From positions 643 through 64,642 of the forward strand of contig DATNGG010000167.1 in NCBI GenBank assembly GCA_035605975.1: a DNA stretch of 64,000 nucleotides, in the 5' to 3' direction. Shown here in pieces: positions 12,488 through 36,692 of the stretch. Position 1 is the first letter of the stretch. Each line of letters begins with the position of its first letter. Both the position numbers and the translations under genes were made by a program. Under the pieces are notes generated by a model, which saw only the letters and a program-made list of their open reading frames with translations, was not told the origin of the DNA and searched no databases. This DNA comes from Stellaceae bacterium (lineage in GTDB: Bacteria > Pseudomonadota > Alphaproteobacteria > ATCC43930 > CGMCC-115725).

Positions 12488-12496
12488 GATTGTGAT

Positions 12497-13567: not shown

Positions 13568-13605
13568 CGGCGTTGTGCATCCAGGATGGTCTCGAGGAGA
13601 TAGTC

Positions 13606-13632: not shown

Positions 13633-13640
13633 CGCGCGAT

Positions 13641-14279: not shown

Positions 14280-14427
14280 GCCTCACCGGCTCGTTGAATG
14301 AACAGACGATCGAATGACGCTCGTTGGATGGCAGACATAACCAAACATGGGGCTTACTCGTGCCACACCGAGTACACTCGTCGATGCGTAAAAATTCCGC
14401 TCGCGGTGCGGCGGGCTCTATCTGTAC

Positions 14428-14604: not shown

Positions 14605-14834
14605 TGTACTCCTTAGTGCTCTCGCTAGCGCAGATGAACTTCGGTTCGCATTCTGCGATCGGGCGTTACCCGTCCGTCAAAATAATGAAAAGGAGATCGA
14701 AGGTCACTCGCAGAGAGCAAAGGGCCAGTGATTCGTCGAATCCAACTTAGATAATATCGGTCGTTCCAACGTTGCTTGCAACCTCGCAGTTTTGACCGCC
14801 CGCAAGCGCCTCCAGGCCCTTTGCCGATGCGAGG

Positions 14835-15104
14835 CTAGGGGAAATCCGACGTGCGTAAAAGAATCGATGTTTTTTGGTCTTGCACGTCATATTTGTCGCT
14901 GGCTTTTTGTTGGATCGCCGTGCGCCATTTGTCGAAGGCGGCCAGGCAGGATTGCTTGCTGCCGCGACCGGCGCCGAAATGATCGATGAGTGCTTCCATC
15001 GAGATCGCGCAGGGCCGCGGATTGCCGGAATCCTCGCCAAGAAAATTGACAATGTTTCTTCTTAGATCCCAGCCCCGAATTTGCTTTGGGAACATAAGTG
15101 GCAT
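14835..15104 (-). CDS. DUF1488-like small protein
   Basis: 89 aa. Pattern ..WDLRRNIVNFLGEDSGNPRPCAISMEALIDHFGA...CLAAFDKWRTAIQQKASDKY resembles DUF1488 (recalled). Confidence 0.4.
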   Translation of the reverse strand: MPLMFPKQIRGWDLRRNIVNFLGEDSGNPRPCAISMEALIDHFGAGRGSKQSCLAAFDKWRTAIQQKASDKYDVQDQKTSILLRTSDFP

Positions 15105-15165
15105 CTCACCGCCCCATTGCTCGCGTCAAGTGACGCGATTTCGAAATCTCAATCGGTCACTTTCC

Positions 15166-15645
15166 TCAACGTCTGGGAAAGATTCGCTTGGCGACGGGCC
15201 AAAAGATCTCGTCATGCAGATCAAGCAGCGATTCGTGAAGCCAATAATGAGTATTCAGCAAGGCATGAAGCGGCGTTTCCTGCGCGGGCAATCGGGGTTG
15301 CCTTTCGACGTCTTCCATCCAGCATCCGGCTGCGTCAAAAGCGTCGCGTGCGACATCTGTCAGGCGTTGCTCATCGAGGTGTTCGATTGGGCCGAATCCA
15401 TATTGATCCGAAACGAACTGCAAAATGCGGCCGAGAGCTTGGTCGCGTTGGTTTCTTGCGGTCGCTATTCGCCGCCTCGCCACCTCCGGATCACCCCCGC
15501 TGTCCGCGTAGGCGGTGTAGATCACCTCGTAATCTTCTGCGTTTAACGGGTGAGCATCGTTACGGTCCCGATCTTCTCGTTCGATCGACTCGACGGTGGA
15601 AGCTAGCCGGCTCAAGAAGGCGGCGTCGAAGATTTTCTCATTCAT
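15166..15645 (-). CDS. Hypothetical protein (159 aa)
   Basis: AGGA 6 nt upstream of ATG 15645 (MNEKIFDAAF...). Acidic, ordinary composition. No family recognised. Confidence 0.4.
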   Translation of the reverse strand: MNEKIFDAAFLSRLASTVESIEREDRDRNDAHPLNAEDYEVIYTAYADSGGDPEVARRRIATARNQRDQALGRILQFVSDQYGFGPIEHLDEQRLTDVARDAFDAAGCWMEDVERQPRLPAQETPLHALLNTHYWLHESLLDLHDEIFWPVAKRIFPRR

Positions 15646-16408
15646 CGTCATTCCTGTTGAAATGGTCCAAGGCATTTTGTTGAGGCGCTTGAGTACGCAA
15701 CGGGGTTCTTAACTCCGTTTGAAATTTATTTTCGCCCCGAAAGAAATGTGCAATATCCGCAGATTCTCTCCGCTTGGAATTATCGCGGTTCCAAAAGGCC
15801 CAGCCATGCAATGAGCATAGCCATTATTGCGTTAATTGTTGGATTTTCGCGAAGACAAGTCCCATATAGCACGAACGAGATCAGGTCAATGGCCGCGGCG
15901 ATCCAATGCCAGCTCGCAATAAAGAGAGACGCCGAGAATCGCGAGCGGTGGCCGCTCTTTGGGACGCGACACGGAATGGTCGCAATATGGCGATGGAAGA
16001 ATTCGAGACCACGGCCATCGATGGGGTGCTATTGGGCCCCATCGTCTGGGCGCTCCGCTACTCGGCCGGCGAGGTTTACCTCAGGGAGGTTGAAACGAGC
16101 TCCATCTCGGCATGAGCACTTCCAGTGCGGGCACGAGCGCGCAGACCCGCCGTAAGTGGCAAGACCCGTCGTCCGCAGTCATGAATTCCGAGTCTCTCGA
16201 CAATGAGGCACTAACGCGCGGCATCATTGGTGTGCGCGGGCGAGATGTTTCAGCAATCGCCCGAGAAAATACGCGGAGATCGGCGCTCGCGGGAAGGGCC
16301 GAAGAAACGCGGAATTGGCTCAGGGTGCTCAAGCTGATTCAGCAGCAAGAGTAGGCGCTGCCAGCATAATCAGTCTTTCCCCAATTGAAACGGGGGGATT
16401 GGCCTGCG

Positions 16409-16675
16409 TCAGCGCTCGATGACCTTACCCTCCGGATCGATCGCCACATCGACGCGCCGGCCGTCCTTGCTTGCTGAACCGATCCACGAGCCCGGCGAGA
16501 CTGCGGATTGAATAATGATCACGTGCGTGTAGCCATCGTTCTGCAGCAAGAGAATTGAGCGCGACCATGTCGTCGCGTTGCCGGAGACGGGAGGCCCGAG
16601 GCGGTCGGCAAACGCGGCCGAACTTGCGATACATGCAAGCGGGATCGCCGCAAGGACAAAAACCTTCCAGATCAT
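16409..16675 (-). CDS. Small secreted PepSY-like protein
   Basis: AAAGGAG SD before ATG 16675. Signal peptide MIWKVFVLAAIPLACIASSAAFA. C-terminal ..GSASKDGRRVDVAIDPEGKVIER is PepSY-like. Confidence 0.5.
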   Translation of the reverse strand: MIWKVFVLAAIPLACIASSAAFADRLGPPVSGNATTWSRSILLLQNDGYTHVIIIQSAVSPGSWIGSASKDGRRVDVAIDPEGKVIER

Positions 16676-16690
16676 CGCGCAAACTCCTTT

Positions 16691-17074
16691 ATGAGGCGGG
16701 AGCGCGCTCCGAATGGCGATCCTTCGGACCTCGATCCCTTTGCGAATGGACTCATCGTGGCACGAGCCGAGACGTGCCGGCAGCGTCCTGCGATTTGCGC
16801 CGCCATGGGACATAGCTTCGTTGAGGCGGAAGCGTATCTTCACGATCATCCGCGCGAATCGCTTTCCCTCTTAAAGCATCGATTTCCGAAAATCGAGGAC
16901 AAGGTCCTCGCCGCGGCGTTCGACGTGATCCTGAAAATCAGCCCAAATCCGCCACGCGTCACGGCGAAGGCCATCGAGAATACGGAACGGCTAAACATCG
17001 AGGCCGGCCTGCTGAAGCCACAAGACAAGCTAGACTCTTACGACGGCATCACGACCGACGAATTTCTCAGATAA
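16691..17074 (+). pseudogene. Truncated paralogue (C-terminal third only) of the adjacent NMT1-type SBP
   Basis: DPSDLDPFANGLIVARAETCRQRPAICAAMGHSFVEAEAYLHDHPRE...GITTDEFLR aligns residue for residue with the C-terminus of the 17164-18192 protein (DPADLDPFATSIVATRPETCQQRRSVCMAMGHSFAEAEAYIHDRPKE...GIVTDEFVK). No N-terminal two-thirds and no signal peptide. Confidence 0.7.
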
Positions 17075-17163
17075 TCCTCACCTCTGCACCGAGCGAGCGC
17101 CCAGCTTGCCCGTCACCGCATGTGATGCAGGTGGCAGGCTCGATATCCTAACCGTTCAAGAAT

Positions 17164-18192
17164 TCACTTTACGAATTCGTCTGTGACGATTCCCGCGAAC
17201 GATTTGAGCCTCTCTTCAGGCTTGAGCAGACCGGCGTCGATATTGAAACGTTCAGCATTTTCCAAGCCCTTTTGGCTCACGAGGGGCGGACTGGGGCTGA
17301 TTTCATGCAATACATCGAATGCTGCGGCGAACACCTTGGCATCGAGTTTTGGAAAGCGCTTCTTCAACACCTCCGCCGCCTCTTTCGGCCGGTCGTGAAT
17401 ATAGGCTTCCGCTTCGGCGAAACTATGGCCCATTGCCATACAGACGGATCGGCGCTGCTGACAGGTCTCAGGCCGCGTCGCAACAATGCTGGTGGCAAAG
17501 GGATCGAGATCGGCGGGATCGCCCTTAGGACCGCTTGCGACCGTTACCGCGGCTCCCTGAGTGACCGGTATCAGCGGCCAGGGCGGGGCCATTGCGAAGC
17601 CATCGATTTGCTTCGTCTGAAACGATGCAAGCATATTGGCAGGCTGCATGGTCGGAATTTGCATTCCGCTCGGATCGATTCCTGCGCGTTTGAGGATTAG
17701 GAGCAGATAGCTGTCGATCAACGACCCGGTCGAATCCACGGCGATCGTGCGATTGCGCAGTATCGCGGCACGCTTCTTCAAGGGCGCTCCAGGGTCGAAG
17801 CCTGCGGCGTCGGCCAGATCTTTGCGCAGAACGATGATCGTGCTCGGCTTATCGATCGTCTCGGCAATAACAAGCAGCTTCTGTCCCTTGGCGATCGCGC
17901 GCGTAATCGAAGTGGAAGCGGCCTCCACGAAATCCGCACTGCCCGAAATAACGGCGTTGGTCGCGCCGACGCCGTGGATGAGCACGGTTTTCACATTGAG
18001 GCCATTCTTCTTGTAGATCCCGAGGTCCTCGGCCAGATAGTTGGCCCCGAATGAGATGGTAAAAGCCGGATTTGCCATGACGACGTCGGTGAGTTTTCCC
18101 GTCTCGGCGGCAGACGCCGGAGACGAGACAACTGCCATGGCGATCGATAATGCGGCCGTTACGAACCGCAGATCCGTCCCTAACATCTTCAT
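17164..18192 (-). CDS. ABC-type substrate-binding protein, NMT1/TauA (NitT/TauT) family
   Basis: Signal peptide MKMLGTDLRFVTAALSIAMAVVSSPASA. Typical class of periplasmic binding fold, with paralogues at 40455, 41628 and 52543. Confidence 0.85.
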   Translation of the reverse strand: MKMLGTDLRFVTAALSIAMAVVSSPASAAETGKLTDVVMANPAFTISFGANYLAEDLGIYKKNGLNVKTVLIHGVGATNAVISGSADFVEAASTSITRAIAKGQKLLVIAETIDKPSTIIVLRKDLADAAGFDPGAPLKKRAAILRNRTIAVDSTGSLIDSYLLLILKRAGIDPSGMQIPTMQPANMLASFQTKQIDGFAMAPPWPLIPVTQGAAVTVASGPKGDPADLDPFATSIVATRPETCQQRRSVCMAMGHSFAEAEAYIHDRPKEAAEVLKKRFPKLDAKVFAAAFDVLHEISPSPPLVSQKGLENAERFNIDAGLLKPEERLKSFAGIVTDEFVK

Positions 18193-25003: not shown

Positions 25004-27412
25004 GTGACGCCGCCCGATGGGAATCGCGCCGCGCCGCGGCCGGCCCGGGCACCGCGCGTGCGCGGGCGCCTCTTCCGCAAATATGTCGTGCTGTTCGCCG
25101 CGGTGGTCTCGATCGTCCTTCTCGCCAACGGCTTGCTCGAGATCTGGTTCTCATACCAGGACCACGAGGCCTCGCTCATCCGCTTGCAGCAGGAGCAGGC
25201 GGAATCGGCCGCGGCCAAGCTCGGCGAATTCGTCACCGAGATCGAAAGCCAGGTCGGCTGGACGACGCAATTGTCGTGGTCGGCGAACAGCCTCGAGCAG
25301 CGCCGCTTCGACGCGCTGCGGCTGCTGCGGCAGGTTCCGGCGGTCACGGAGCTGGCTTTGCTCGATTCGGCCGGCAAGGAAAGGCTGCGCGTCTCGCGCA
25401 TCGCCATGGACGTCGTCGGCAGCGAGCGCGACTTTTCGCAGACGCCCGAATTCACCGAGGCCGTTGCGCACAAAATCTATATCAGCCCGGTCCATTTCCT
25501 GCGCGAGTCCGAGCCCTATATCACCCTGGCGCTCGCCGGAACGCGGCGCGAGAACGGCGTCAGCGTCGCCGAGGTCAATCTCAAATTGATGTGGGACGTG
25601 GTCTCGCACATCAAGGTCGGCACGCACGGCGTCGCCTATGTCGTCGATCGGCAAGGCCGGCTGATCGCGCATCCCGATATCAGCCTCGTTCTGCGCAACA
25701 CCGACATGTCGCGCCTCGCGCAATTTCGCGCGGCGCGCGACGCAACCGACAACAGCAGCGCTGACGCCGTCCAGATCGCGGATGACATCCACGGTCGCCG
25801 CGTGCTGACCGCCTACGCCGTCGCCGCCCCCATGGGTTGGCTCGTCTTCGTCGAGCTTCCGGTCGCCGAGGCCTATGGCCCGCTCTACACCGCGATCCTT
25901 CGCTCGATCCTTCTCCTGTCGGCGGCTCTCGTCCTTGCCGGCCTCGCCGGATTTTTCCTTGCCCGCCGGATGGTCGGGCCGATCCTCGCCTTGCGGGCCG
26001 GCGCCTTGCGCATCGGCAGCGGCGACTTCGCCCAGCGCATTGCGATCAAGACGGGCGACGAGCTCGAAGTGCTCGCCGACCAGTTCAACGACATGGGCAG
26101 CCGGCTCCAGCAGTCCTATGCCGATCTCGAGAAAAAGGTCGAGCTGCGCACCCGCGAGCTGGCGCAGTCGGTCGAGGAGCTCCGTGCCTTGGGCGAGGTC
26201 AGCCAAGCCGTCAACTCGACGCTCGATGTGTCCTCGGTCCTCGCGACCATCGTTGCGAAAGCCGTCCAGCTTTCCGAGACGGATGCCGGCGCGATTTATG
26301 TCTTCGACGAGCCTCGCCAGGAATTCGCGCTGCGCGCGACGCATGGCATGTCCGACGATCTCATCGACGCCATCACCCGCCATCAGGCGGAGCTCGGCGA
26401 CACCACCATCGGCGAAGCCGCCCAAACCGGCAAGCCGACCCAGATTCCCGATCTCCTCGAAACGCCGCATCTCCCGCTCCAACAGCTCGTCCTCCAGGCG
26501 GGCTTCCGGGCGCTGTTGGTGGTGCCTCTCCTTCGCGGCAATCGTATCATCGGCGCGCTTGTCGTCCGGCGCCGCGCACCCGGCTCCTTTCCCTCGGCCA
26601 TTGTCGAGTTGCTCGAGACCTTTGCGGCGCAATCGGCGCTCGCCATCCACAATGCCAGCCTCTTCACCGAGATCGACGAGAAGAGCCGCGAGCTCGAAGT
26701 CGCGAGCCAGCACAAATCGCAGTTCCTCGCTAATGTCAGCCATGAGCTGCGCACGCCGCTCAACGCCATCCTTGGCTATACCGAACTGGTGCTCGACGAC
26801 ATCTATGGCCAGGTGCCGAATAAGATCCGCGAGGTACTGAAACGCGTGCAGACGAACGGCCAGCATCTGCTGGGGCTGATCAACGACGTGCTCGATCTCT
26901 CGAAGATCGAAGCGGGGCAGATGGCGCTCTCGGTTACGGCATATTCGCTCGACGACATTCTTCACGGCGTCGTCGCGTCGCTCGAGCCGCTCGCCGCCGA
27001 AAAGCGGCTGAAGCTCGCGCTCGATCTCGCGCCTGGCCTGCCGATCGGCCATGGCGATGCCCGGCGCATCGCGCAGGTCCTGCTCAATCTCGTCGGCAAC
27101 GCCATCAAATTCACCGATCGCGGCGAGGTTGGGGTGGCGGCCATGGCCGAAAATGGGCGCTTCCGCATCGCGGTGCGCGACACCGGTCCGGGGATCCCGC
27201 CCGCCGAGCAGAAAAGGGTGTTCGACGAATTTCACCAGGTCGACAATTCCACCACCAAAGCCAAAGGCGGAACGGGTCTTGGCCTCGCCATCGCCAAGCA
27301 GATCATCGACCTGCATGGCGGCAAAATCTGGCTCGACTCGAAGCCCGGCCAAGGCTCGACCTTCACGATCAGCCTTCCGGTCGTGGTGGAACGGCAGATG
27401 GAGCGCGTATGA
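25004..27412 (+). CDS. Sensor histidine kinase (TM - Cache-like - TM - HAMP - GAF - HisKA - HATPase_c)
   Basis: 802 aa. HAMP: ARRMVGPILALRAGALRIGSGDFAQRI. GAF: ALGEVSQAVNSTLDVSSVL... H-box: FLANVSHELRTPLNAILGY. N and G boxes: LLNLVGNAIKFT, DTGPGI, GTGLGLAIAK. Confidence 0.9.
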   Translation: MTPPDGNRAAPRPARAPRVRGRLFRKYVVLFAAVVSIVLLANGLLEIWFSYQDHEASLIRLQQEQAESAAAKLGEFVTEIESQVGWTTQLSWSANSLEQRRFDALRLLRQVPAVTELALLDSAGKERLRVSRIAMDVVGSERDFSQTPEFTEAVAHKIYISPVHFLRESEPYITLALAGTRRENGVSVAEVNLKLMWDVVSHIKVGTHGVAYVVDRQGRLIAHPDISLVLRNTDMSRLAQFRAARDATDNSSADAVQIADDIHGRRVLTAYAVAAPMGWLVFVELPVAEAYGPLYTAILRSILLLSAALVLAGLAGFFLARRMVGPILALRAGALRIGSGDFAQRIAIKTGDELEVLADQFNDMGSRLQQSYADLEKKVELRTRELAQSVEELRALGEVSQAVNSTLDVSSVLATIVAKAVQLSETDAGAIYVFDEPRQEFALRATHGMSDDLIDAITRHQAELGDTTIGEAAQTGKPTQIPDLLETPHLPLQQLVLQAGFRALLVVPLLRGNRIIGALVVRRRAPGSFPSAIVELLETFAAQSALAIHNASLFTEIDEKSRELEVASQHKSQFLANVSHELRTPLNAILGYTELVLDDIYGQVPNKIREVLKRVQTNGQHLLGLINDVLDLSKIEAGQMALSVTAYSLDDILHGVVASLEPLAAEKRLKLALDLAPGLPIGHGDARRIAQVLLNLVGNAIKFTDRGEVGVAAMAENGRFRIAVRDTGPGIPPAEQKRVFDEFHQVDNSTTKAKGGTGLGLAIAKQIIDLHGGKIWLDSKPGQGSTFTISLPVVVERQMERV

Positions 27413-27771
27413 CAAAGCGCGTACTCGTGGTCGAGGACCACGAAGACAACCGGCAAATCCTGCGCGACCTTTTGGGCAGCGCCGGATTCGAGATCATCGA
27501 GGCCGAAAACGGCGAAGAGGCGGTGACGCTCGCCGAGACCGGCCGGCCCGACGTCATTCTGATGGATATTCAACTGCCGGTTCTCGATGGCTATGAGGCG
27601 ACGCGGCGCATCAAGGCCAATCCCCGCTCGCGCTCGATCCCAGTGATCGTCGTGACCTCCTATGCGCTGAGCGGCGACGAGGAGAAGGCCCGGCTCGCGG
27701 GATGCGATGATTACGTCTCGAAGCCCTTCAGCCCGCGCGACTTGCTGGCCAAGATCAGGCGTTATGTGTGA
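27409..27771 (+). CDS. Single-domain response regulator (CheY-like receiver)
   Basis: VLVVEDHEDNRQIL..PDVILMDIQLPVLDG..SIPVIVVTSYA..DDYVSKPF. ATGA overlap with the kinase stop. Confidence 0.9.
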   Translation: MTKRVLVVEDHEDNRQILRDLLGSAGFEIIEAENGEEAVTLAETGRPDVILMDIQLPVLDGYEATRRIKANPRSRSIPVIVVTSYALSGDEEKARLAGCDDYVSKPFSPRDLLAKIRRYV

Positions 27772-27789
27772 GGGAGCGACCGGAACGCG

Positions 27790-28902
27790 ATGCAGGATCC
27801 GCCGCGCATATTGATCGTCGACGACAACGAGGCCAACCGCGACATCGTCAAGACGCGTCTCGCGGTGAACGGCTACGAATTTCTCGAGGCCGCGGATGGC
27901 GAGCAGGCGCTCGATGCGGCACGGCGCTTTGCGCCGGACCTGATCCTGCTCGATGTGATGATGCCGAAGATCGACGGCATCGAGGTCTGCCGCCGGCTGA
28001 GGGCCGAGGCGGGTGCGCCGTTCGTTCCGATCATCCTGGTGACGGCGCGCACCGACAGCCGCGACGTGGTGGCGGGGCTCGAAGCCGGGGCGGATGAGTA
28101 TCTAACCAAGCCTGTGGACCAGATCGCGCTGGTGGCCCGCGTCAAATCGATGCTGCGCCTCAAAGAGCTGCATGACCGCGTCACCGCTCATGCGCGCGAC
28201 CTCGCGGACTGGAACCGGGCCTTGGAGCAGCGTGTCGCCGATCAGGTCGGCGAGATCGAACGCATCGGCCAGCTGAAGCGGTTTCTCTCGCCGCAGATCG
28301 CGGAGATGATCGTCTCGACTGGCAATGAGAAAATCCTCGAAAGCCATCGCCGCGAGATCACCGTCGTCGTCTGCGACCTGCGCGGCTTCACCGCCTTCTC
28401 CGACACGGCCGAGCCCGAAGACGTCATGACGCTGCTGCGCGAATACCAGGCAACGCTCGGCCGGCTCATCGATAAATACGAGGGAACCCTCGAGCGGTTC
28501 ACGGGCGACGGGCTCCTCGTCTGGTTCAACGATCCCGTCCCCTGCCTCGATCCTTGCAGCCGCGCCGCGCGCATGGCGATCGACATGCGGGATTCGGTCT
28601 CGCGCATGACGGCGAAATGGCGCGACCTCGACCACAATCTCGGATTTGCGATCGGGATCGCCCATGGCTACGCGACGCTTGGCCGGATCGGCTTCGAGCG
28701 GCGCTTCGACTATGCCGCCGTCGGGGTGGTCGTCAACCTCGCGGCGCGGCTTTGCGCCGAGGCGAGCGACACGCAAATCTTCATCGACAGCAAGGTCTTT
28801 GCCGCGATTTCGGCGCAGGCAACGGCGGAGCCGGTCGGCGAGCTGGCGCTGAAAGGTTTCAACCGCCCGGTGAAGGCTTATAATCTTCTGGCGGCGCGAT
28901 GA
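27790..28902 (+). CDS. Response regulator receiver fused to a class III adenylate/guanylate cyclase
   Basis: Receiver: ILIVDDNEANR..DLILLDVMMPKIDG..DEYLTKP. Coiled linker. Cyclase: ITVVVCDLRGFTAFSD...ERFTGDGLLVWFNDP...IGIAHGYATLGRIG. Confidence 0.9.
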   Translation: MQDPPRILIVDDNEANRDIVKTRLAVNGYEFLEAADGEQALDAARRFAPDLILLDVMMPKIDGIEVCRRLRAEAGAPFVPIILVTARTDSRDVVAGLEAGADEYLTKPVDQIALVARVKSMLRLKELHDRVTAHARDLADWNRALEQRVADQVGEIERIGQLKRFLSPQIAEMIVSTGNEKILESHRREITVVVCDLRGFTAFSDTAEPEDVMTLLREYQATLGRLIDKYEGTLERFTGDGLLVWFNDPVPCLDPCSRAARMAIDMRDSVSRMTAKWRDLDHNLGFAIGIAHGYATLGRIGFERRFDYAAVGVVVNLAARLCAEASDTQIFIDSKVFAAISAQATAEPVGELALKGFNRPVKAYNLLAAR

Positions 28903-29618
28903 TGTCGGAAGAAAGGCGGCGCGCTGTGGCAGCCGATGCGATCTCGCAGGATTTAGTCCGGCATTTGGGCAAATGCCTGTTGTTCCGCGCGCTCGACGAT
29001 GCGGCGCGCGAAGAGCTTGCCTCGCGCGTGCACCACCGCCAGTTCAAATCGGGCGAGCCGATCTTCCATGTCGGCGCTCCCGGCCAAAGCATGATGGTGA
29101 TCCTCAAAGGCACAGTCAGAGTGTCGCTCCCCGGCCCCACCGGCAAGACCGTCATCCTCGCCGATCTCACCACCGGCGACATTCTCGGCGAGGTCGCTCT
29201 GCTCGATGGCGGGGGCCGCTCCGCCGATGCGACGGCGCTGACCAATTGCACGGTGGCAACGCTCGAGCGGCGCGAGGTTCTGCCGCTGATCGAGAAGCGG
29301 CCGGAAGTCTGCCTGAAGCTGCTCGAGCTGATGTGCGCGAGGCTGCGAAAATCGGACGAGCGCATGGCGGAGATCGCGTTCTTCGAGCTGCCGGCGCGGT
29401 TGGCGAAAGTCCTGCTCGAGCGGATCGGCCAAGCCGGCGGCAGCGCACCGAAATTGTCGCTATCGCAGAGCGAGCTCGCGAGCATGATCAATGCGAGCCG
29501 AGAGAACGTCAATCGCTGTCTCAAGGATTGGCAGCGCCGCGGCCTGGTGAGCCTCGACGAGCGCTGGATCAGCATCCTGCAGCGCGACGCCCTCGGCGAT
29601 ATCGCAAGCCGCCTTTGA
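28899..29618 (+). CDS. Crp/Fnr-family cyclic-nucleotide-binding transcriptional regulator
   Basis: cNMP-binding domain (FKSGEPIFHVGAPGQSMMVILKGTVRV..GDILGEVALLDGGGRSADATA) plus C-terminal HTH (LSQSELASMINASRENVNRCLKDW). ATGA overlap with the cyclase stop. Confidence 0.9.
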   Translation: MMSEERRRAVAADAISQDLVRHLGKCLLFRALDDAAREELASRVHHRQFKSGEPIFHVGAPGQSMMVILKGTVRVSLPGPTGKTVILADLTTGDILGEVALLDGGGRSADATALTNCTVATLERREVLPLIEKRPEVCLKLLELMCARLRKSDERMAEIAFFELPARLAKVLLERIGQAGGSAPKLSLSQSELASMINASRENVNRCLKDWQRRGLVSLDERWISILQRDALGDIASRL

Positions 29619-29849
29619 CTGCTTCGGCTGCCGCGCCCCGCGGGGCTGGCCCCGTCACGCTAAACGAAAATGTTGCCGCGCACGATCATTCATAATGATT
29701 ATTGTCTCGTTTTTCGCGTCACGGTATAGTCAAACGAAATCAAAGTACGGATTGCGGACGCAGACAAAATCTTCGCCGTAAAGCCGTGGGTGGCACAAGC
29801 GTCAGATCAAGTGGCATGAACGTGTTGCCAGCGAGGGCTGGTTCTGCGA

Positions 29850-30764
29850 ATGCGTTTGCAACGGCTTTGTTCGCCTTTGCGGCTTGCCATCCCTGCCTCG
29901 GCGCGGATGCGGTGGTTGGCGCGCGCGCGCAGCGACAAACACCGCGCCACTCCTGAGATCACGATCCGCTTCGACTTCCAAGGAACCAGCGAGCAGAGCT
30001 TATCGGCGGGCGAGCGCGCATCCTTCTGCGCCGCATTTCGCCGCGAACTGACAAGTCTCCGAACGTGGCTGGCTAACTGGCAAGACCCGCCGGACGAGTT
30101 GTCCGTTCCCACACTGCAGGTGCTGGTCTCGGATGGCTACAAAATTTCGCGGGCGCTGGTGCCGGCCTGGGAGCGCCGCAGCGGCGTGCTGGAATTCCCG
30201 ACCTCGCGGGTGGTGAGCGGCAAGGCGGCGATCCTCCATGAGCTGACACATGTCTACCTGCCGAACGGCAACCGGTTTCTTGCGGAAGGTCTCGCGACTT
30301 ACCTTCAAGCGCGTCTCGGGGGCAATCCCGCCTTTCCCGATTTCGGCCGGCCGTTGCACGGCTTGGCGCGCGACGGTCTGCTCGAAATCGCTTCGGGGAA
30401 AGCGGAGACTTTCGCGAGCGTCGGGCTCGGCGAGCTCGATGCAACGCCGACGCCCAATCCCTTGACGCTCGCCGCGGCGGGGCGGCGCTATCGACGGCAA
30501 GCCGATATCCAGGCGGCCATCTATGCGATCGTCGGCTCCTTCGTCGAATTCCTCATCGCAGCGCAAGGGCTCGAGCGGTTTCAGCGACTCTATCGCGCAA
30601 CGCCGCTGACGCCGGGACGGCTCGAAGCCGGCGCGACCGAACGATGGTCCGAAATTTACGGCCGCAGCCTCGCCGATCTCGAAGCCGACTGGAAATCGCT
30701 GATCGTCGGCGAGCATCGGCACGGCGGACCGAACGCACAAGCGCGGGCCCGTCGGCTCGCGTAG
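29850..30764 (+). CDS. Peptidase MA-like zinc metallohydrolase (HEXXH..E); N-terminus uncertain
   Basis: AAILHELTHVYLPNGNRFLAEGLATYLQ matches the Peptidase_MA_2-type motif HExxH...(W/F)LxEGLAxY. An out-of-frame ORF (ATG 29816) encodes a lipoprotein-like signal; see finding. Confidence 0.6.
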   Translation: MRLQRLCSPLRLAIPASARMRWLARARSDKHRATPEITIRFDFQGTSEQSLSAGERASFCAAFRRELTSLRTWLANWQDPPDELSVPTLQVLVSDGYKISRALVPAWERRSGVLEFPTSRVVSGKAAILHELTHVYLPNGNRFLAEGLATYLQARLGGNPAFPDFGRPLHGLARDGLLEIASGKAETFASVGLGELDATPTPNPLTLAAAGRRYRRQADIQAAIYAIVGSFVEFLIAAQGLERFQRLYRATPLTPGRLEAGATERWSEIYGRSLADLEADWKSLIVGEHRHGGPNAQARARRLA

Positions 30765-30787
30765 AAACCCGAACGAGGAGGACGACA

Positions 30788-31105
30788 ATGCCGGAAATCA
30801 ACCCGAAGCTCAGCCGCGCGGCGGTGAAACGCTCGGCTCGCAAGACAGCGGCGGGCAAGGGCCGCGTGCCGCTTCCCGGCGTCAAGACCGACGCCAAGCA
30901 CGTCGACGCTTCCGACAAATGCGCTTATGCGGAAAACCGCGAACTGGCGCGGCTGATCGAGAAGGCGATGCGCACCGTCAAGAAGCACGACAAGAACGGT
31001 CAGCACTTCGTCCTCGGCTGGCGGCTCTATCCCAATCGCGATCATCCGCGGTGGAAGAACAAGGATGTTCATTCCTGCGGATGCGGCTGCGGCTGCGGCT
31101 CCTAG
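30788..31105 (+). CDS. Candidate RiPP precursor peptide, 105 aa, C-terminal (Cys-Gly)4-Ser
   Basis: GAGGAGGA SD 6 nt upstream of ATG 30788. Translation: MPEINPKLSRAAVKRSARKTAAGKGRVPLPGVKTDAKHVDASDKCAYAENRELARLIEKAMRTVKKHDKNGQHFVLGWRLYPNRDHPRWKNKDVHSCGCGCGCGS*. GC-rich third positions. Sits directly upstream of a DUF692 operon. Confidence 0.6.
   Translation: MPEINPKLSRAAVKRSARKTAAGKGRVPLPGVKTDAKHVDASDKCAYAENRELARLIEKAMRTVKKHDKNGQHFVLGWRLYPNRDHPRWKNKDVHSCGCGCGCGS
31076..31099 (+). repeat. Coding hexanucleotide tandem repeat TGCGG(A/C) x4
   Basis: tgcgga tgcggc tgcggc tgcggc, encoding CGCGCGCG at the 3' end of the precursor ORF. Confidence 0.95.
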
Positions 31106-31172
31106 ACCGCGCCGCGCCGTGAACTGAGTACGAGAGAAAAGAGCGAAGCACCGTTCGAAGGGGAGGTCCCAG

Positions 31173-32027
31173 ATGCCAGCATCGCCGACGCAGGGCATTG
31201 GCGTGTTGTCGAGTATTTCCTTCAGCGGAACGAGGCTGGCAGATGCCTTCCTCAAAGGGCTCGGCCGCGAGGTCTATCTCAATGTGAAAGACAATCGCGG
31301 CTACGACGCGAAATCGCTGAACGAGGCTCTGCAAGCGCTGAACAACGACATCAAGATCGGCTTGATCGTGACGGCCGGCGGCCTGGTGGTGGCGCAGGAA
31401 GCGGGGAAGGATACGGGCGCGACCCTGCCCTTCATCTCGCTGGTTGGCGGCACGCCCGGCCCCTTCCCAAGCCGCGGCCAGGGATATTTTCGCGGCGGCG
31501 TGAGCCTCGAATCCTTTGCCGAAAATCCGCACCGGCTCGCTCACCTCGCCGGTCTCGGCATTCCCGAAAGCAAAACCTGCCTCCTCTCCAATCCCAATTC
31601 CTCGATGGCCGCCGCCGAAACCGCAGCATGGACGGCAGGCAAGCGCGGCCCGGTGATCAAGGCGGGAAGCGTCAGCAAGGGCAGCGCCAACAGTGCCGCG
31701 ACCTATCGGCCGGCTTTTGCCGAGATCGAGAAAGCCGGAATGATGGCCGTCGTCGTCAGCGCCGATCCCTTCTTCCAGGAAACCATGGAAGAGCTGATCG
31801 ACGCGGCTAATCGCTGGATCGCGCAGGGCAAGGGCCGGCGGATCAGCTATCCCTTGCACGAATATGAAAATCCCGCCGGGAAGTGCAAGCCCGCGCCCGG
31901 TTACACACTGCACGGCCCGGTTCTCGAAGAGGCCTATGAGGCGTTGGGCCGGATGGCGGCCGATTTCCTCGCCGATCAGCCCATTCGGCTGCAAACCCTC
32001 GGGCTCAGCGCGCCGCGCGATCGATGA
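31173..32027 (+). CDS. Signal-less (cytoplasmic) PF04392/ABC_sub_bind-like protein
   Basis: GGGGAGG SD 6 nt before the ATG. Alignable by eye with the secreted SBP at 35700: LIVTAGGLVVAQEAGKDTGATLPFISLVG vs LIAATGGVVSAKAALKATTSIPVVFVVG; VVVSADPFF vs LIVSADPYF; YPLHEY vs YPLRQY; HGPVLEEAYEALGRMAADFL vs YGPNLEHAYRDAGIYAGRIL. No N-terminal hydrophobic signal. Confidence 0.65.
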   Translation: MPASPTQGIGVLSSISFSGTRLADAFLKGLGREVYLNVKDNRGYDAKSLNEALQALNNDIKIGLIVTAGGLVVAQEAGKDTGATLPFISLVGGTPGPFPSRGQGYFRGGVSLESFAENPHRLAHLAGLGIPESKTCLLSNPNSSMAAAETAAWTAGKRGPVIKAGSVSKGSANSAATYRPAFAEIEKAGMMAVVVSADPFFQETMEELIDAANRWIAQGKGRRISYPLHEYENPAGKCKPAPGYTLHGPVLEEAYEALGRMAADFLADQPIRLQTLGLSAPRDR

Positions 32028-33679
32028 AGCCTGGACGTTCGGCGCAACGGATCGGAACGGCATCGCAAGCGAATGCTGGCCCGGACGCCGCGCCGCTTGT
32101 GGGGATCGGGTACCGCGCCGTGCTCGCGGATTGGACGCGCGCTCATCTGGCGCGCTTCGATGTGCTCGAAATCACCGTCGATCACTGCCTCTATGCCGGG
32201 CCGGCGCAGCGCCGACACATCGACGAGCTCGTCGAGCGCGTTCCGCTCACCGCGCACGGCATCGGGCTATCGATCGGCACGGATTGTCCGCTCGATCCTG
32301 CCTATCTCGACCAAGTCGGCATCGTCATCGAGCGGCTGAAGGCGCCCGCCTATAGCGAGCATCTCGCCTTCACGCGCGTCCCGGGCCGCGATCTCGGCAA
32401 TCTCTTGCCCGTGCCGCGAACCGAGGCGGCGGCAGCGCAGATCGTCGCGAAAATCCGCGACATCCGCGCGCGGCTCGGCGTGCCGTTCCTCATCGAGAAT
32501 ATCGCCAATATTTTCGAATGGCCGCAATCGACCCTGTCGGAAGCCGAATTCATCAGCCTGATTTGCCGCGAATCCGGCGCCGGGCTGCTGCTCGATATCG
32601 AAAACCTGCGCCTCAACGCGCGCAATCATCATGTCGATGCCCGCGCATTTCTCGACGCCTTGCCGCCGGGTCTGGTGCGAGAGATGCACATGGCGGGCGG
32701 CATCGCGGTGCGCGATGCAAGCTCCGGCGCCTCGATCCTCGCCGATTCGCACTCGCATCCGGTCGGCGAGGAGACGCTCGCCCTTCTCGATTATGCGCTG
32801 AAGCGGCATCGCCCGCAGACGCTCATCCTCGAGCGCGACGACCGGCTCGAGGCCGGCGACGAGATTCTGGCCGATGTCGCGCGGATTCGCGCGCTGCTTG
32901 CCGAGCGTAATGCTGCGATCGATCCGGCGCCCGAGCATCGGCGGGAGACGCTCCTCGCTCGGCAGACCCAATTGCTCGCCTATCTCACCAGCGCGCCGGC
33001 CATTTTCGGCGGCGGCCCGGCGGCGGCGCTTCCGCCGCTGCTCGAAGGTATCGATCCCGTCCGGCTCGATTTCGAGGCGCGCTTCTCGCATGAGAAACGC
33101 ATGGAAAAGCTTGCAAGAATCTTCCCGCGCACGCTCGATCTGTTGGAAGCACAACGAGCGGAGCTCCTCCAAGCCTTTGCCGAGGCTTGCCCGCCGGCGA
33201 GCATCGGATTGTTGGAAACGGCGCAGCAATTCTTGGATTTCCTGTCGGCGCGCCCGCCGCGCGCGGGCCGCTCGAACTATGCGTGCGATGTTGCCCGATG
33301 CGAGCTCGCCCTCGCACAGGCGCGCTTTCGCCGAGGCGAGCCGCCAAAGCGCACGCGGCGCAGCGCGCCGGCGCATGGCGCCCCGCATGCCGTACGACGC
33401 GCCGAATCCGTCGCGCTTGTCCGGTGCGCGCACGATGTCCGAAGCCTTTTTGAGAGCGCGGCCGTCTCGGCCGCGCCGCAAAGGCGCGACACGCCGCTGG
33501 TGATCGCCCAGAGCCGCGCGGCGTTGGAGCCCGAAATTTTCGAGATTCCCGCGGCGCTCTTCGATCTCCTTGCGTCACTCGAGCATTGGACCGAGCGGCG
33601 TTGCCTTGGCCGCAATCCCGGCGCCGACGCCCTCATCGCCGATCTCGTGACGCGCGGCCTGCTGGAGGTGCGCGCTTGA
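32024..33679 (+). CDS. DUF692 / MNIO (MbnB-like multinuclear non-heme iron oxidase) fused to a DUF2063-like C-terminal domain
   Basis: N-terminal ~290 aa match the DUF692 pattern: VGIGYR..FDVLEITVDH..PLTAHGIGLSIGT..PAYSEHLAFT..LLPVPRTEAA..PFLIENIANIF..GLLLDIENLRLNARNH..EMHMAGG..LADSHSHPV..TLILERDD. C-terminal ~250 aa (..RLDFEARFSHEKRMEKLARIFPRTLDLL..LLQAFAEACPPAS..AQQFLDFLSA..) resemble DUF2063 partner proteins. ATGA overlap with the upstream gene. Confidence 0.85.
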   Translation: MKPGRSAQRIGTASQANAGPDAAPLVGIGYRAVLADWTRAHLARFDVLEITVDHCLYAGPAQRRHIDELVERVPLTAHGIGLSIGTDCPLDPAYLDQVGIVIERLKAPAYSEHLAFTRVPGRDLGNLLPVPRTEAAAAQIVAKIRDIRARLGVPFLIENIANIFEWPQSTLSEAEFISLICRESGAGLLLDIENLRLNARNHHVDARAFLDALPPGLVREMHMAGGIAVRDASSGASILADSHSHPVGEETLALLDYALKRHRPQTLILERDDRLEAGDEILADVARIRALLAERNAAIDPAPEHRRETLLARQTQLLAYLTSAPAIFGGGPAAALPPLLEGIDPVRLDFEARFSHEKRMEKLARIFPRTLDLLEAQRAELLQAFAEACPPASIGLLETAQQFLDFLSARPPRAGRSNYACDVARCELALAQARFRRGEPPKRTRRSAPAHGAPHAVRRAESVALVRCAHDVRSLFESAAVSAAPQRRDTPLVIAQSRAALEPEIFEIPAALFDLLASLEHWTERRCLGRNPGADALIADLVTRGLLEVRA

Positions 33680-35703
33680 AGATTTGCATCATCGGCAAGT
33701 TTCCTCCGATCGAGGGTGGGGTGAGCATGCGCACCTATTGGTCGGCGCATCGGCTCGCGGCGCGCGGACATGAGGTCCATGTCGTGACCAACGCAAAAGA
33801 GGCGGCGCCGCCCTTTCGCATGCATATGCGCGCGGAGGATTGGGCGCGCTGCGCGGCCGATTACGGCGAAGGCCGGGTGACGGTTCACTGGAGCGATCCG
33901 GTCGACGCCTCGCAGCTTTACCTGCCGATGGCGAGCGCCTTCGTCTCGAAGCTCTCCTCCCTTGCCGCGCGCCTCTGCACGGAGCGCGCGATCGATGTGG
34001 TCTTCTCCCATTACCTCGAGCCTTATGGCGTCGCCGGACATTTGGCTGCCGAGATGGCGGGTTTGCCCCATGTCGTCCGTATGGCGGGAAGCGATTCGGG
34101 TCGCCTCTGGCGCCATCCGCAATTCGAGCCGCTTTACAACCACGTCTTGCGCTCGGCGGCCATTGTCGTCGCGACGGGCGTGGTCGCCGAACGAGCGGTG
34201 GCGCGCGGCGTCGATCCGGCGCGCATCGCCGCCGCGGGTTTCAGCCTGCCGGACGAGCTCTTCACCCCCTTCGGGCCTGCGCTCGATTACGCCGCTTTGC
34301 GCGCGGAAATCGCGGGAGCCGACGAGCCGCAGCGTCTTTGGGGTGGCTTCGCCTTGGACCGGCCGTTCTTTGGAATTTACGGCAAGCTCGGCGAGCGCAA
34401 AGGCTCCTTCGCGCTCCTCGCGGCGCTGGAGCGATTGAAGTGCGCGGGCATCGAGATTGGCCTCGTCGCTCTGGCGCATGGGCATGCGGCGACCGAAGCG
34501 GAATTTCGCCGCCACGTCGAAAGCCGCGGCCTCTTCGACCGGGTGTTGCAGCTTCCGTTTCTGCCGCATTGGCGCGTGCCCGAGTTCCTGCGCAGCTGCC
34601 TCGCTGTCTGCTGCCTCGAGCAGGATTTCCCGATCGCTCATCACACGCCGATCACGCCGCTCGAAGTCCTGCTCTGCGGCAAATGCCTCGTCGGCTCGGC
34701 GGAGCTCATCCGCAAGCTTCCGGATCATCGCCTCTTGCCGAGCGGCTATAGCTGCGTCGAGATCGCGGACGTCAACGATATCGACCGGCTGGCGGCACAG
34801 CTTGCCGCGATCGCCGAAGACCCGGCGCCGGCGGCGGCGATCGGCGCGCGCGGCTATGCGTTTGCGTGCGAATGCCAGGAGCAGGCCGAGTTTCCGGCCA
34901 AGCTGGAGCGCATTCTCGAAGTGGCGGCGGCGCGCCGAAACCTGGTCTCGTCACAAGAGGTATTGGCAGAGAGCGAGAGCGAGGAAGAGCGGAGCTTTCC
35001 CTTTGCGCGAATCGCGGCCGCCGCGCTCGCCGCGACGGAGTCGAAACCCGCCAAGACGAACGGCGCGCGGTTCGAACTCTCGGATGCGCAGACGGTTTTG
35101 GCGGCGCTCGATCGCGGGCGGCTCGCGGATCACCCAAAATCGGCATCGCTCGCTTCGGCCGTGTGGGCCGAAGTCGCGATCGCGCTTGCTCAAGGCGCGA
35201 CGCGAGAGCCCGAAGACATCGGAGCGGAACCGCCGCCGCTCGCCGCGTCCCGACGCTGGGGCTTGGCCGAGGGCGATCTCGCCAAGCTTTTTCCCCATCG
35301 CCGCCGGGATATAAAAGTGCTCACTTTCGACTGCGACATTGCCGCATTCCGGACAGCGAGGAACCTCGAGGAACTGCCCGACGCGCCGCGCCGCCATCCG
35401 AGCTATGTGATCGTGTTCAGCGGCCGCGGCTCGTCGCCGGCCGATCCGCTGCTGGTCGACCGCGCCACCGCGCGTATCCTCGAGCTCAGCGACGGAACGC
35501 GAACGACCCGCCAGATCATGGATCAATTGAAATGCGAGACGCAGCGCGGCGATACGGACGAGAATCTCGACTGGATCGAGGCCCTCTTCGTTGATGGGCT
35601 CATCCGCTTCACCGACTCGCCCGCGAGGCCCTCAGACGGTAGCATGATGCTGCGGCTGCGACATCCCCGCGCCAGCGGGACGGATGACAGGATGGCACAG
35701 TGA
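33676..35703 (+). CDS. GT4-type (GT-B) glycosyltransferase fused to a C-terminal PqqD-like RiPP recognition element
   Basis: TTG 33676 (GGAGG 7 nt upstream; TTGA overlap with the MNIO stop). N-terminus: KICIIGKFPPIEGGVSMRTYWSAHRLAARGHEVHVVT. C-terminal GT lobe: GIYGKLGERKG..PLEVLLCGKCLVGS. Last ~75 aa: YVIVFSGRGSSPADPLLVDRATARILELSDGTRTTRQIMDQLKCE..NLDWIEALFVDGLIRF, which follows the PqqD pattern. Confidence 0.8.
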   Translation: MKICIIGKFPPIEGGVSMRTYWSAHRLAARGHEVHVVTNAKEAAPPFRMHMRAEDWARCAADYGEGRVTVHWSDPVDASQLYLPMASAFVSKLSSLAARLCTERAIDVVFSHYLEPYGVAGHLAAEMAGLPHVVRMAGSDSGRLWRHPQFEPLYNHVLRSAAIVVATGVVAERAVARGVDPARIAAAGFSLPDELFTPFGPALDYAALRAEIAGADEPQRLWGGFALDRPFFGIYGKLGERKGSFALLAALERLKCAGIEIGLVALAHGHAATEAEFRRHVESRGLFDRVLQLPFLPHWRVPEFLRSCLAVCCLEQDFPIAHHTPITPLEVLLCGKCLVGSAELIRKLPDHRLLPSGYSCVEIADVNDIDRLAAQLAAIAEDPAPAAAIGARGYAFACECQEQAEFPAKLERILEVAAARRNLVSSQEVLAESESEEERSFPFARIAAAALAATESKPAKTNGARFELSDAQTVLAALDRGRLADHPKSASLASAVWAEVAIALAQGATREPEDIGAEPPPLAASRRWGLAEGDLAKLFPHRRRDIKVLTFDCDIAAFRTARNLEELPDAPRRHPSYVIVFSGRGSSPADPLLVDRATARILELSDGTRTTRQIMDQLKCETQRGDTDENLDWIEALFVDGLIRFTDSPARPSDGSMMLRLRHPRASGTDDRMAQ

Positions 35704-36692
35704 TCCGGCGGAATTTCCTCGCTCTTCTCGCCTCGCTGGCGCTGTGCCCGCCCGCGGCGCATGCGGATCAAGCCCCGGACCAGGCGGCAATGCCGGTCAT
35801 CGGCTTCCTGAACAGCGGCTCGCCGGCGGCGTTTGGGAATCTCGTTGCCGCCTTCCGCCAAGGCTTGGGCGATCAAGGCTATGCCGAAGGCTCGACCCTG
35901 CGGATCGATTACCGTTGGGCGCAGGGCCGCTACACCGATCTCGACGGCATGGCCGCGGAGCTGGTGCGCAACCGCGTGAGCCTTATCGCCGCCACGGGCG
36001 GCGTGGTCTCGGCCAAGGCCGCGCTCAAAGCGACGACGTCGATTCCGGTGGTGTTCGTCGTCGGCTTCGACCCGGTCGGATTGGGCCTCGTCAAAAGCCT
36101 CAACCAGCCCGGCGGCAACGCCACCGGCGTCAGCATCTTCACGACGGAATTGATCGCAAAGCGCGTCGAGCTGCTTTACGACCTCTCGCCCGGCATCAGC
36201 ACCGTCGCCATCCTGGTCAACCCCAAGGCGGTCGTCACCGACATCGAAATCCAGGAGACCATCGCGGCGATCCAGCGTTCCGGCCGCAAATTGCTCACGC
36301 TCAACGCGAACAACGAGAGCGAGATCGACGCCGCCTTCGCCTTGGCGGCCGAGCAGAAAGCCGGCGGGCTGATCGTCAGCGCCGATCCCTACTTCACCAG
36401 CCGCAGAGCGCAAATCGTCGCCCTCGCCGCGCGCCACGCAATCCCCGCGATCTATCCCTTGCGCCAATACGCCGATGCCGGCGGCCTCGTCAGCTATGGG
36501 CCCAATCTCGAGCACGCCTATCGCGACGCCGGGATTTATGCGGGCCGGATTCTGAAAGGCGCCAGCCCCAAGACGCTTCCGGTGGCGCTGCCGACGACCT
36601 TCAATCTCGTCATCAACCTCAAAGCCGCCAAGGCCCAAGGCCTCAAAGTGTCGCCGCTTCTCCTCGCCATCGCCAATGACGTGATCGAGTAA
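35700..36692 (+). CDS. Secreted ABC-type substrate-binding protein, PF04392 (ABC_sub_bind) family
   Basis: GTG start with a GTGA overlap on the GT stop. Signal peptide MIRRNFLALLASLALCPPAAHA. Family pattern: PVIGFLNSGSP..FRQGLGDQGY..IAATGG..PVVFVVGFDPV..GNATGVS... Confidence 0.85.
   Translation: MIRRNFLALLASLALCPPAAHADQAPDQAAMPVIGFLNSGSPAAFGNLVAAFRQGLGDQGYAEGSTLRIDYRWAQGRYTDLDGMAAELVRNRVSLIAATGGVVSAKAALKATTSIPVVFVVGFDPVGLGLVKSLNQPGGNATGVSIFTTELIAKRVELLYDLSPGISTVAILVNPKAVVTDIEIQETIAAIQRSGRKLLTLNANNESEIDAAFALAAEQKAGGLIVSADPYFTSRRAQIVALAARHAIPAIYPLRQYADAGGLVSYGPNLEHAYRDAGIYAGRILKGASPKTLPVALPTTFNLVINLKAAKAQGLKVSPLLLAIANDVIE

Follow-up and report, generated by a model that had tools for sequence, protein, structure and literature searches.

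What is produced by an operon in which a DUF692 gene follows a small open reading frame (ORF) ending in alternating Cys and Gly residues, and is itself followed by genes for a glycosyltransferase and a binding protein? The question arises from a contig of a Stellaceae bacterium (DATNGG010000167.1, assembly GCA_035605975.1), of which a stretch of 64,000 nucleotides (nt), referred to here as the window, was analysed. At positions 29850–36692 (+) the window carries six consecutive same-strand ORFs (Table 1). The deposited annotations of the window proteins are only "hypothetical protein", "DUF692 domain-containing protein" and "ABC transporter substrate-binding protein". DUF692 proteins are oxidative enzymes that depend on multinuclear non-heme iron (MNIOs), which are among the fastest-growing sources of new peptide chemistry, and new MNIO families are predicted regularly. 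The reading put forward here, with a probability of roughly three in four, is that the six genes make up a biosynthetic operon for ribosomal peptides or small proteins that are modified by an MNIO and belong to a new family. The order is a gene for a protein with an HExxH motif (pep), the small ORF, termed the precursor, a third gene (p3), the MNIO fused to a partner domain, the glycosyltransferase (GT) and an exported substrate-binding protein (SBP) of family PF04392. The operon is widely conserved in uncultured soil Alphaproteobacteria.

The six genes belong to one transcription unit, the last four of them being coupled in translation through 4-nt overlaps (ATGA at 32024, TTGA at 33676 and GTGA at 35700). 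Both the six same-strand genes and the overlaps were listed in a preliminary description of the window; all six ORFs are present and the overlaps are exact when checked base by base. The MNIO-partner fusion is 551 amino acids (aa) in length (32024–33679) and the GT 675 aa (33676–35703). The small basic ORF, its Cys-Gly end and the Shine-Dalgarno sequence before it are also as previously described; its isoelectric point is 9.99, and the Shine-Dalgarno sequence is 7 nt upstream.

The 105-aa ORF represents a true gene family. Among 5.8 billion proteins searched, 314 are close homologues, nearly all of them exactly 105 aa long and 68–94% identical, and a profile search of 1.84 billion cluster representatives gives a superfamily of 116 clusters at 50% identity. 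In the close family the tail H[SA]CGCGCGC[SGH][AS] hardly varies. The preliminary description had a (Cys-Gly)4 tail, which is present in the window, but as a general unit this does not hold; the conserved unit is C-x-C-x-C-x-C, where the four alternating Cys residues are invariant in close family and superfamily and x is G, S, A or N. Upstream of the tail the precursor shows the conserved motifs LPGVKTD, an NRELA helix and FVLGWRLYPN..HP.W, of which the forms NRxLA and F[VIL]L-x-WR-x-YPN..HP.W extend over the whole superfamily. The N-terminus is strongly conserved as well, including M1, P2, I4 and P6, and its sequence (MPEINPKLSRAAVKR) is not hydrophobic. The precursor has no signal peptide and no Pfam or NCBIfam match, DUF2282 and EGKCG included. 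An AlphaFold2 (AF2) model from the family alignment has a mean predicted local distance difference test score (pLDDT) of 51, with two helices, a hairpin and a disordered tail. The precursor is thus strongly conserved yet not confidently globular, a pattern that fits a peptide recognised by several partners. The closest precursor subfamily was found in uncultured soil bacteria only.

Some precursor subfamilies carry a Lys/Arg-rich extension after the Cys block, so that the block is not always at the extreme C-terminus. The homologues P0245, P0248, P0252, P0257 and P0259, and loci L044–L048, L063, L074 and others, display long Lys/Arg/Ala/Pro-rich extensions, e.g. …CGCSCGNVAPLPGRKKKKKTTSKKK…, which resemble polyanion- or nucleic-acid-binding tails. 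One 190-aa homologue (P0305) has an N-terminal MKRREFVKSMTVLAAGGVLPAPTVGSPANALS extension similar to a twin-arginine translocation (Tat) signal. Relatives of P0305 start downstream of this extension and it is therefore treated as a single case, possibly a rare variant that is exported or an artefact of gene calling.

The fourth gene had been described as a DUF692 protein with a ~250-aa extension, and this is borne out by profile searches. Residues 26–292 match PF05114 (MbnB_TglH_ChrH) with an E-value of 5.5e-71 (239 bits against a cut-off of 25), and a DUF2063-like region follows. The iron ligands of VcMbnB are H55, H91, E135, D165, N168, H194, D209, H211 and E238 (PMC8888699). Their nine equivalents in the window MNIO, H78, H113, E158, D191, N194, H222, D241, H243 and E270, are found without change in 19/19 cassette homologues, so both the DUF692 placement and the metal ligands stand, and judged by its residues the enzyme looks catalytically competent. 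Among NCBIfam models the best score is to BufB (202.2 bits, cut-off 310), followed by HvfB (177.4 bits, cut-off 360); ApyH (100 bits, cut-off 400) and MbnB (48.5 bits, cut-off 325) score lower, and ChrH lies far below BufB. The best match in the PDB is 3BWW (E-value = 2.8e-31), with TglH and MbnB also matched. 3BWW is assigned to the PME1-dependent MNIO group in PMC13097082.

The C-terminal ~250 residues of the fusion form the partner domain. DUF2063 is matched with an E-value of 1.4e-4 in the fusion and 4.7e-5 when the domain is searched alone (24.0 bits, cut-off 27.2). Across the family DUF2063 is matched in 10/14 members, always below threshold, and HvfC in 6/14, the best at 9.7e-6 and far under the cut-off of 142. 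A search of the partner domain profile against PDB sequences found nothing. In many loci MNIO and partner are separate genes, e.g. 295 aa and 240 aa in locus L002, and the fusion in the window is a local variant.

The GT is a GT4 glycosyltransferase, as originally proposed: Glyco_trans_4_4 (PF13579, 3.9e-15), PF13439 (8.8e-10) and Glycos_transf_1 (PF00534, 2.8e-9) are all matched above cut-off, and Foldseek returns GT4 structures, with GlgM, MshA and BshA at the top (E-values of 1e-18 to 1e-15) and LmbT lower. The best NCBIfam match is BshA, at 22.6 bits. There are more than 900 homologues of about 650–700 aa. The AF2 model (pLDDT 78.8) displays a GT-B fold, a helical linker and then a module at residues 539–646 with three strands followed by three helices (beta-beta-beta-alpha-alpha-alpha). 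Foldseek on the full model gave GT-B matches only and so is no test of this C-terminal module.

For the module of the window protein alone, Pfam shows no PqqD match, and to that extent the PqqD-like end claimed in the preliminary description is not seen; the resemblance emerges across the family, below threshold, and in the AF2 topology. TIGR03859 (PqqD) is matched in 16/19 members, the best at 1.9e-5 and all under the 46-bit cut-off. Other sub-threshold matches are to ApyI, which contains a recognition element for peptides that are ribosomally synthesized and then modified post-translationally (RiPP recognition element, RRE), in 11/19 members, to Pfam PqqD in 7/19 and to HvfC in 4/19. The best PDB profile match is PqqD 5SXY, at an E-value of 0.18. 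A comparison by hhalign of the GT C-terminal domain with the MNIO partner domain gave no relationship. The best reading of the module, from the consistent member-wise matches together with the modelled topology, is a PqqD-like recognition element, though none of these matches is above threshold.

Two genes of the operon encode proteins of the PF04392 fold. The SBP matches PF04392 with an E-value of 1.5e-47 (162.7 bits, cut-off 25.9) and has an N-terminal MIRRNFLALLASLALCPPAAHA signal, in agreement with its description as a secreted PF04392 SBP. A lipobox in this signal was considered and rejected, as LALC has Leu at position −1 and its Cys is not conserved in the family consensus. The p3 protein alone shows no Pfam or NCBIfam match, and its profile gave nothing useful against PDB sequences. 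Against the operon SBP family, hhalign gives p3 a probability of 99.7% and an E-value of 1.5e-26. The alignment begins past the SBP signal peptide, and thus "signal-less PF04392-like", the wording first applied to p3, is correct. In the window subtype almost all precursor copies are followed by a p3 copy, tandem duplications included.

The HExxH protein is present in most, not all, cassettes. H111, E112, H115 and E127 (counting from a start at 29907) do not vary among 19 homologues, so this part of the earlier claim of an MA-type HEXXH peptidase stands; the peptidase assignment itself is weak and below threshold. Peptidase_MA_2 is matched only by the C-terminal part (E-value = 0.02, 15 bits, cut-off 32.4), and weakly in 9/19 family members, the best at 2.4e-4. 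The 688 homologues are all unannotated and the family profile has no match among PDB sequences. Their N-termini are variable and without a hydrophobic stretch of the signal-peptide kind. The protein is weakly assigned, from its motif and these matches, as a cytoplasmic putative metallopeptidase of the gluzincin type. It could instead be an alpha-ketoglutarate HExxH oxygenase as found in other RiPP clusters; however, no NCBIfam HExxH-modification model is matched at an E-value of 0.1 or lower, and the HExxH-x11-E pattern and the weak Peptidase_MA_2 matches favour a gluzincin.

The start at 29816 previously given for this gene did not hold. Position 29816 is in a different frame, that of an 84-aa ORF (29702–29956, +) which overlaps the start of pep, and the conserved HExxH protein is at 29850–30764. 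Read from 29816, the overlapping ORF contains a signal-peptide-like stretch (MNVLPARAGSANAFATALFAFAACHPCLGADA), the source of the misreading, and no sign of its being a gene was found. A signal peptide for pep at this position is rejected on the grounds of the wrong frame and of the variable, non-hydrophobic N-termini of the homologues.

The arrangement recurs well beyond the window. A scan of one genome per GTDB species, using patterns of the close subfamily only, gave 28 loci, of which L037 (a tail match only) was set aside, leaving 27. All are in metagenome-assembled genomes (MAGs) of uncultured Alphaproteobacteria, Xanthobacteraceae, Stellaceae and Rhodoplanes. When metagenomes were scanned with a profile built from distant precursors, 80 further loci were gained. 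By a tblastn census, the full set of HExxH protein, precursor, p3, MNIO, partner and GT, with or without the SBP, is found in 20/27 GTDB loci. When both collections are combined, 51 loci have at least 3 kb downstream of the precursor; an MNIO lies within 4.5 kb in 39 of these and a PF04392-like gene within 8 kb in 45. The GT is found in 28 of the 37 loci with at least 6 kb downstream. Of seven exceptions in GTDB genomes, five are extra precursor and PF04392 pairs with the full cassette on another contig of the same MAG, namely in CAWBSI (L014 and L036, with L016), CAVSSN (L023 and L031, with L027) and CAVWOV (L018, with L020). Another five exceptions, on metagenome contigs, are precursor and SBP pairs. 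Thus the small Cys-tailed ORF, MNIO, partner, GT with its RRE-like end and PF04392 genes occur together in dozens of independent loci, as the preliminary description would have it.

The loci fall into several subtypes. The window subtype has the arrangement P-A-b-M-C-G(-S) and the tail HSCGCGCGCSA. A subtype without the HExxH protein and p3 (A-M-C-G-S) has the tail EGCGCNCGCYAPK; others have the Lys-rich precursor extensions, and in an orphan-pair subtype a precursor with a degenerate tail (CGCGFGD) is accompanied by an SBP with a Tat signal. The association with the MNIO persists despite the loss of pep and p3 and despite precursor divergence to ~35% identity. The invariant core consists of precursor, MNIO, partner and GT, and in nearly all cases a PF04392 protein is encoded close by. 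No transporter, TonB receptor, exporter or other further gene was found to be conserved across the cassettes.

Several individual loci show variations on this plan. Tandem precursor duplications, typical of RiPP clusters, are seen in L015 (10001–12970), L024 (10001–12650), L102 (2806–3688) and L114, with a single MNIO-partner-GT set downstream; in L015 and L024 the p3 gene is duplicated along with the precursor, and one L114 copy has the tail CCGCCCGCC. Six metagenome contigs (L050, L053, L055, L058, L096 and L098) carry orphan precursor-SBP pairs with no MNIO or GT nearby. Their precursor tails are degenerate (…QHACGCGFGDVS or CGCSFGGVCP, with two Cys in the block), and the PF04392 SBP directly after the precursor displays a clear twin-arginine signal, MRRREFITLLGG…. 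In L008 and L009 (1–7400) an orphan pair of precursor and PF04392-like gene adjoins resolvase, ArdC-like, VapE-like and helix-turn-helix genes, and these neighbours suggest that the pair is carried on a mobile element. The closest public locus, L010 (DASTAU010000007.1), has a precursor 94% identical to that of the window and is binned as "Sphingomicrobium sp.", whereas the window's proteins are from a Stellaceae MAG; this points to an inconsistency of binning or taxonomy between the MAGs.

Table 1. Features of the six-gene operon and its upstream region, by window position
Feature	Coordinates	Strand	Description
Promoter-like site upstream of pep, weak	29702..29730	+	Consensus scan, 9/12 match
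pep (HExxH protein)	29850..30764	+	~300 aa; true start possibly 29907; putative gluzincin-type metallopeptidase
Shine-Dalgarno sequence of precursor gene	30775..30781	+	GAGGAGG, read from sequence, 7 nt upstream of ORF
Precursor	30788..31105	+	105 aa, basic, pI 9.99, ends HSCGCGCGCGS
Putative core CGCGCGCGS	31076..31102	+	Cys97, 99, 101, 103; preceded by invariant His95
p3	31173..32027	+	284 aa; signal-less PF04392-fold binding protein, by hhalign against operon SBP family
MNIO (DUF692) catalytic domain	32024..32923	+	PF05114
Fused MNIO partner domain, DUF2063-like/HvfC-like	32924..33679	+	Sub-threshold profile matches
GT4 glycosyltransferase domain	33676..34935	+	GT-B fold, retaining-type; Pfam GT4/GT1 families
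PqqD-like RRE (winged-helix) module, GT C-terminus	35290..35613	+	After helical linker; sub-threshold matches and AF2 topology
Exported PF04392 SBP	35700..36692	+	PF04392 match; RRNFL twin-arginine-like signal

The promoter-like site of Table 1 is one of two such sites found against 1.0 expected, which is not significant alone. Directly upstream of the operon (25004–29618) are a dCache/HAMP/GAF histidine kinase, a response regulator, a response-regulator-nucleotidyl-cyclase fusion and a Crp-family regulator. This signalling set is kept in the Stellaceae MAG loci L005–L007, not in other cassettes, and so it is probably outside the system. Positions 12001–18000 show a G+C content of 0.55–0.59, against about 0.65 elsewhere, with few long ORFs, and may be foreign or non-coding DNA. 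The window contains no second cassette or further precursor copy and no tRNA or Rfam elements, and no plasmid match was found.

Among known systems the captophorins are the nearest (bufferins BufABC, oxazolin HvfABC, fontiphorin FonABC and gonophorin). In these an MNIO acts with a DUF2063-RRE partner (PME1) and forms 5-thiooxazoles on Cys, giving Cu-binding products. PME1-dependent MNIOs (BufB, HvfB and FonB) install 5-thiooxazole and favour a small residue after Cys, according to PMC13097082. The window MNIO resembles this group in its best matches (BufB and HvfB, and 3BWW in the PDB), in the partner with sub-threshold DUF2063/HvfC matches that follows it and in a predicted Cys-rich substrate with a small residue after each Cys. 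Unlike in captophorins, the MNIO misses the BufB and HvfB equivalog cut-offs and the partner that of DUF2063; the precursor is without a Sec signal, DUF2282, EGKCG and a Lys-Cys or Cys-Lys motif; the core is a single contiguous C-x-C-x-C-x-C; and the cassette lacks DoxX, adds the GT4-RRE protein, the HExxH protein and the PF04392 paralogues, and has MNIO and partner fused. The statement in the preliminary description that this is not a bufferin agrees with the BufB score of 202 against 310 and with a precursor that has neither a signal peptide nor a DUF2282 or EGKCG match.

Methanobactin operons encode MbnABC, the periplasmic binding protein MbnE, the TonB receptor MbnT and the exporter MbnM. 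The window operon is similar in having an MNIO, Cys followed by a small residue and a periplasmic binding protein gene nearby, and a metallophore role is conceivable. In contrast to methanobactin, it has no MbnC, TonB receptor or MATE exporter, its binding protein is of PF04392, and the precursor is 105 aa as against about 25–30. Canonical methanobactin was likewise set aside at the outset, and the MbnB score (48.5 bits against 325), the lack of an MbnC match and the lack of a conserved TonB receptor or exporter are in line with this.

The PME-type-2 MNIO systems, the pearlins (TglHI) and aminopyruvatide (ApyHI), also have a signal-less precursor, a modification at or near the C-terminus (predicted for the window) and a divergent partner, and the RRE region of ApyI is weakly matched by the window GT C-terminal domain. 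They differ in that the window MNIO reaches just 100 bits with the ApyH model, for which the cut-off is 400, that 3BWW is closer than TglH, and that the TglHI and ApyHI enzymes act on one C-terminal residue with another chemistry. Glycocins and other glycosylated RiPPs (sublancin with SunS, thurandacin with ThuS) likewise have a glycosyltransferase acting on a ribosomal Cys-containing peptide, as would be the case here. Glycocin enzymes of the SunS/ThuS type are GT2 (GT-A fold) and are not known to occur with an MNIO. The window enzyme, unlike these, is GT4 (GT-B fold) with a C-terminal PqqD-like module. In an RRE survey (PMC12710340) RRE fusions to PF00535 (GT2) glycosyltransferases are reported, and GT4 families are not found in the passages of it that were searched.

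The GT4-RRE protein, the C-x-C-x-C-x-C precursor and the PF04392 genes are not mentioned in the searched portions of PMC12452194 (2025 MNIO landscape), PMC13097082 (2026 captophorin) and PMC12710340. Full-text literature searches returned nothing relevant on MNIO/DUF692 with a glycosyltransferase or on a glycosylated thiooxazole, and neither the precursor nor p3 nor the HExxH protein has a model in NCBIfam (June 2026). The opinion that no described family has this combination of genes is in line with the literature searches and NCBIfam, which yielded none.

The proposed route is as follows. The 105-aa product would be the substrate, its first ~90 residues acting as leader or scaffold, and two RRE-type domains, one within the DUF2063-like partner of the MNIO fusion and the other at the GT4 C-terminus, would dock at the conserved motifs of this part. 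The multi-iron MNIO would oxidise the four alternating Cys by four electrons each, with a predicted change of −4 Da per Cys. The product of this oxidation would most likely be 5-thiooxazole, as formed by the nearest relatives BufB, HvfB and FonB; this is likelier than the oxazolone/thioamide of methanobactin because the enzyme pair is closest to the BufB/HvfB and DUF2063 group. The leader-guided GT4 would add a sugar to the peptide, and the HExxH protein, where present, might trim or release the modified C-terminal segment. The cassette product would probably be metal-binding. More speculatively, it could be a thiolate-rich ligand, probably for Cu, handled by the PF04392-fold proteins, p3 in the cytoplasm and the exported SBP in the manner of a metallophore-binding protein. 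The fully elaborated form of this scheme is unlikely to be right in every part: a new RiPP class in which the four Cys become a contiguous array of thiooxazoles (or another Cys-derived group), glycosylated by a first leader-guided GT4 and passed between cytoplasmic and Tat-exported PF04392-fold proteins. In this form, as no transporter is encoded, the modified peptide or protein, itself without a signal, might be carried out of the cell by the Tat-signal SBP to which it is bound ("hitchhiking").

The assignment to an MNIO-dependent RiPP pathway is supported computationally by gene content, conservation, co-occurrence and intact catalytic residues. Several points weigh against it. The BufB, HvfB, DUF2063 and PqqD scores are all under curated cut-offs. 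Whole subtypes lack pep and p3, and the support for pep as a peptidase is weak. In 12/51 loci the precursor is found with a PF04392 gene only and no MNIO is nearby. The lack of a conserved exporter or importer, together with the lack of a precursor signal peptide, leaves the role of a secreted metallophore unsupported. The closest subfamily was found in MAGs only, so that no organism is at hand, and the chemistry, the acceptor of the sugar and what the binding proteins do are inferred. The precursor is, moreover, conserved over its whole length (68–94% identity), which is unusual for a leader; a functional small protein fits this better than a disposable leader. In the main alternative, which is less likely, the same enzymes act on a 105-aa protein that stays uncleaved, cytoplasmic and modified at full length, as a "cytoplasmic bufferin" or metallochaperone whose thiooxazole tail buffers or delivers metal with p3 as a stoichiometric partner. 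Besides full-length conservation, it is favoured by the absence of a signal peptide and of any conserved transporter, by the p3-like gene that accompanies each precursor copy in window-type cassettes, tandem duplications included, by the absence of pep from whole subtypes, and by the acceptance of MNIO modification of bona fide proteins (PMC12452194). On the other hand, conservation extends to an exported PF04392 SBP (45/51 loci have a PF04392-like gene near the precursor), orphan precursors are paired with Tat-signal SBPs, most cassettes have the HExxH protein, and AF2 gives no confident fold for the precursor (pLDDT 51).

It is improbable that the small Cys-tailed protein escapes modification and serves as a metal-binding or regulatory protein while MNIO, partner and GT act on some other substrate, their co-location being due to shared regulation only. 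C-x-C repeats are able to bind metals unmodified, and the 12/51 loci without an MNIO near the small gene would fit. Yet the cassettes share no other small ORF with Cys, the precursor lies directly upstream of MNIO-partner-GT in subtypes lacking all else, two RRE-type domains imply a peptide substrate, and the small residue after each Cys is a known MNIO preference (PMC13097082). The presence of MshA and BshA, GT4 enzymes that act in mycothiol and bacillithiol synthesis, among the top Foldseek matches, with LmbT lower, and of BshA as best NCBIfam match (though just 22.6 bits) could instead mean that the GT4 and the metalloprotein make a small glycosylated thiol or other non-ribosomal glycoconjugate bound by the PF04392 proteins, the small ORF being incidental. 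Such structures resemble any GT4, however, and this explanation is very improbable given that the GT bears a PqqD-like peptide-binding module and always adjoins the MNIO and its peptide-binding partner, and that no Cys ligase or deacetylase homologue is conserved. Finally, high-GC DNA yields many long spurious ORFs, but a spurious small ORF or a chance arrangement is refuted here by hundreds of fixed-length homologues with conservation at the protein level, a Shine-Dalgarno sequence before the ORF and synteny that recurs in dozens of loci.

On the preferred reading, that of a new MNIO-modified family, the new parts are the precursor family and the accessory set, and the chemistry is probably that of a captophorin-like, MNIO-dependent RiPP. 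If this is true, the operon would display a new substrate logic, in which one C-x-C-x-C-x-C block is carried by a conserved 105-aa scaffold that has no signal peptide, and would combine MNIO oxidation with glycosylation, of which no description was found in the literature. A GT4 fused to a peptide-recognition element would be useful for engineering leader-directed glycosylation. The operon would also provide a first functional handle on PF04392 binding proteins, the cytoplasmic paralogue included. Should the modified product indeed leave the cell bound to its SBP, it would be the first ligand class for the very large orphan PF04392 family of soil Alphaproteobacteria.

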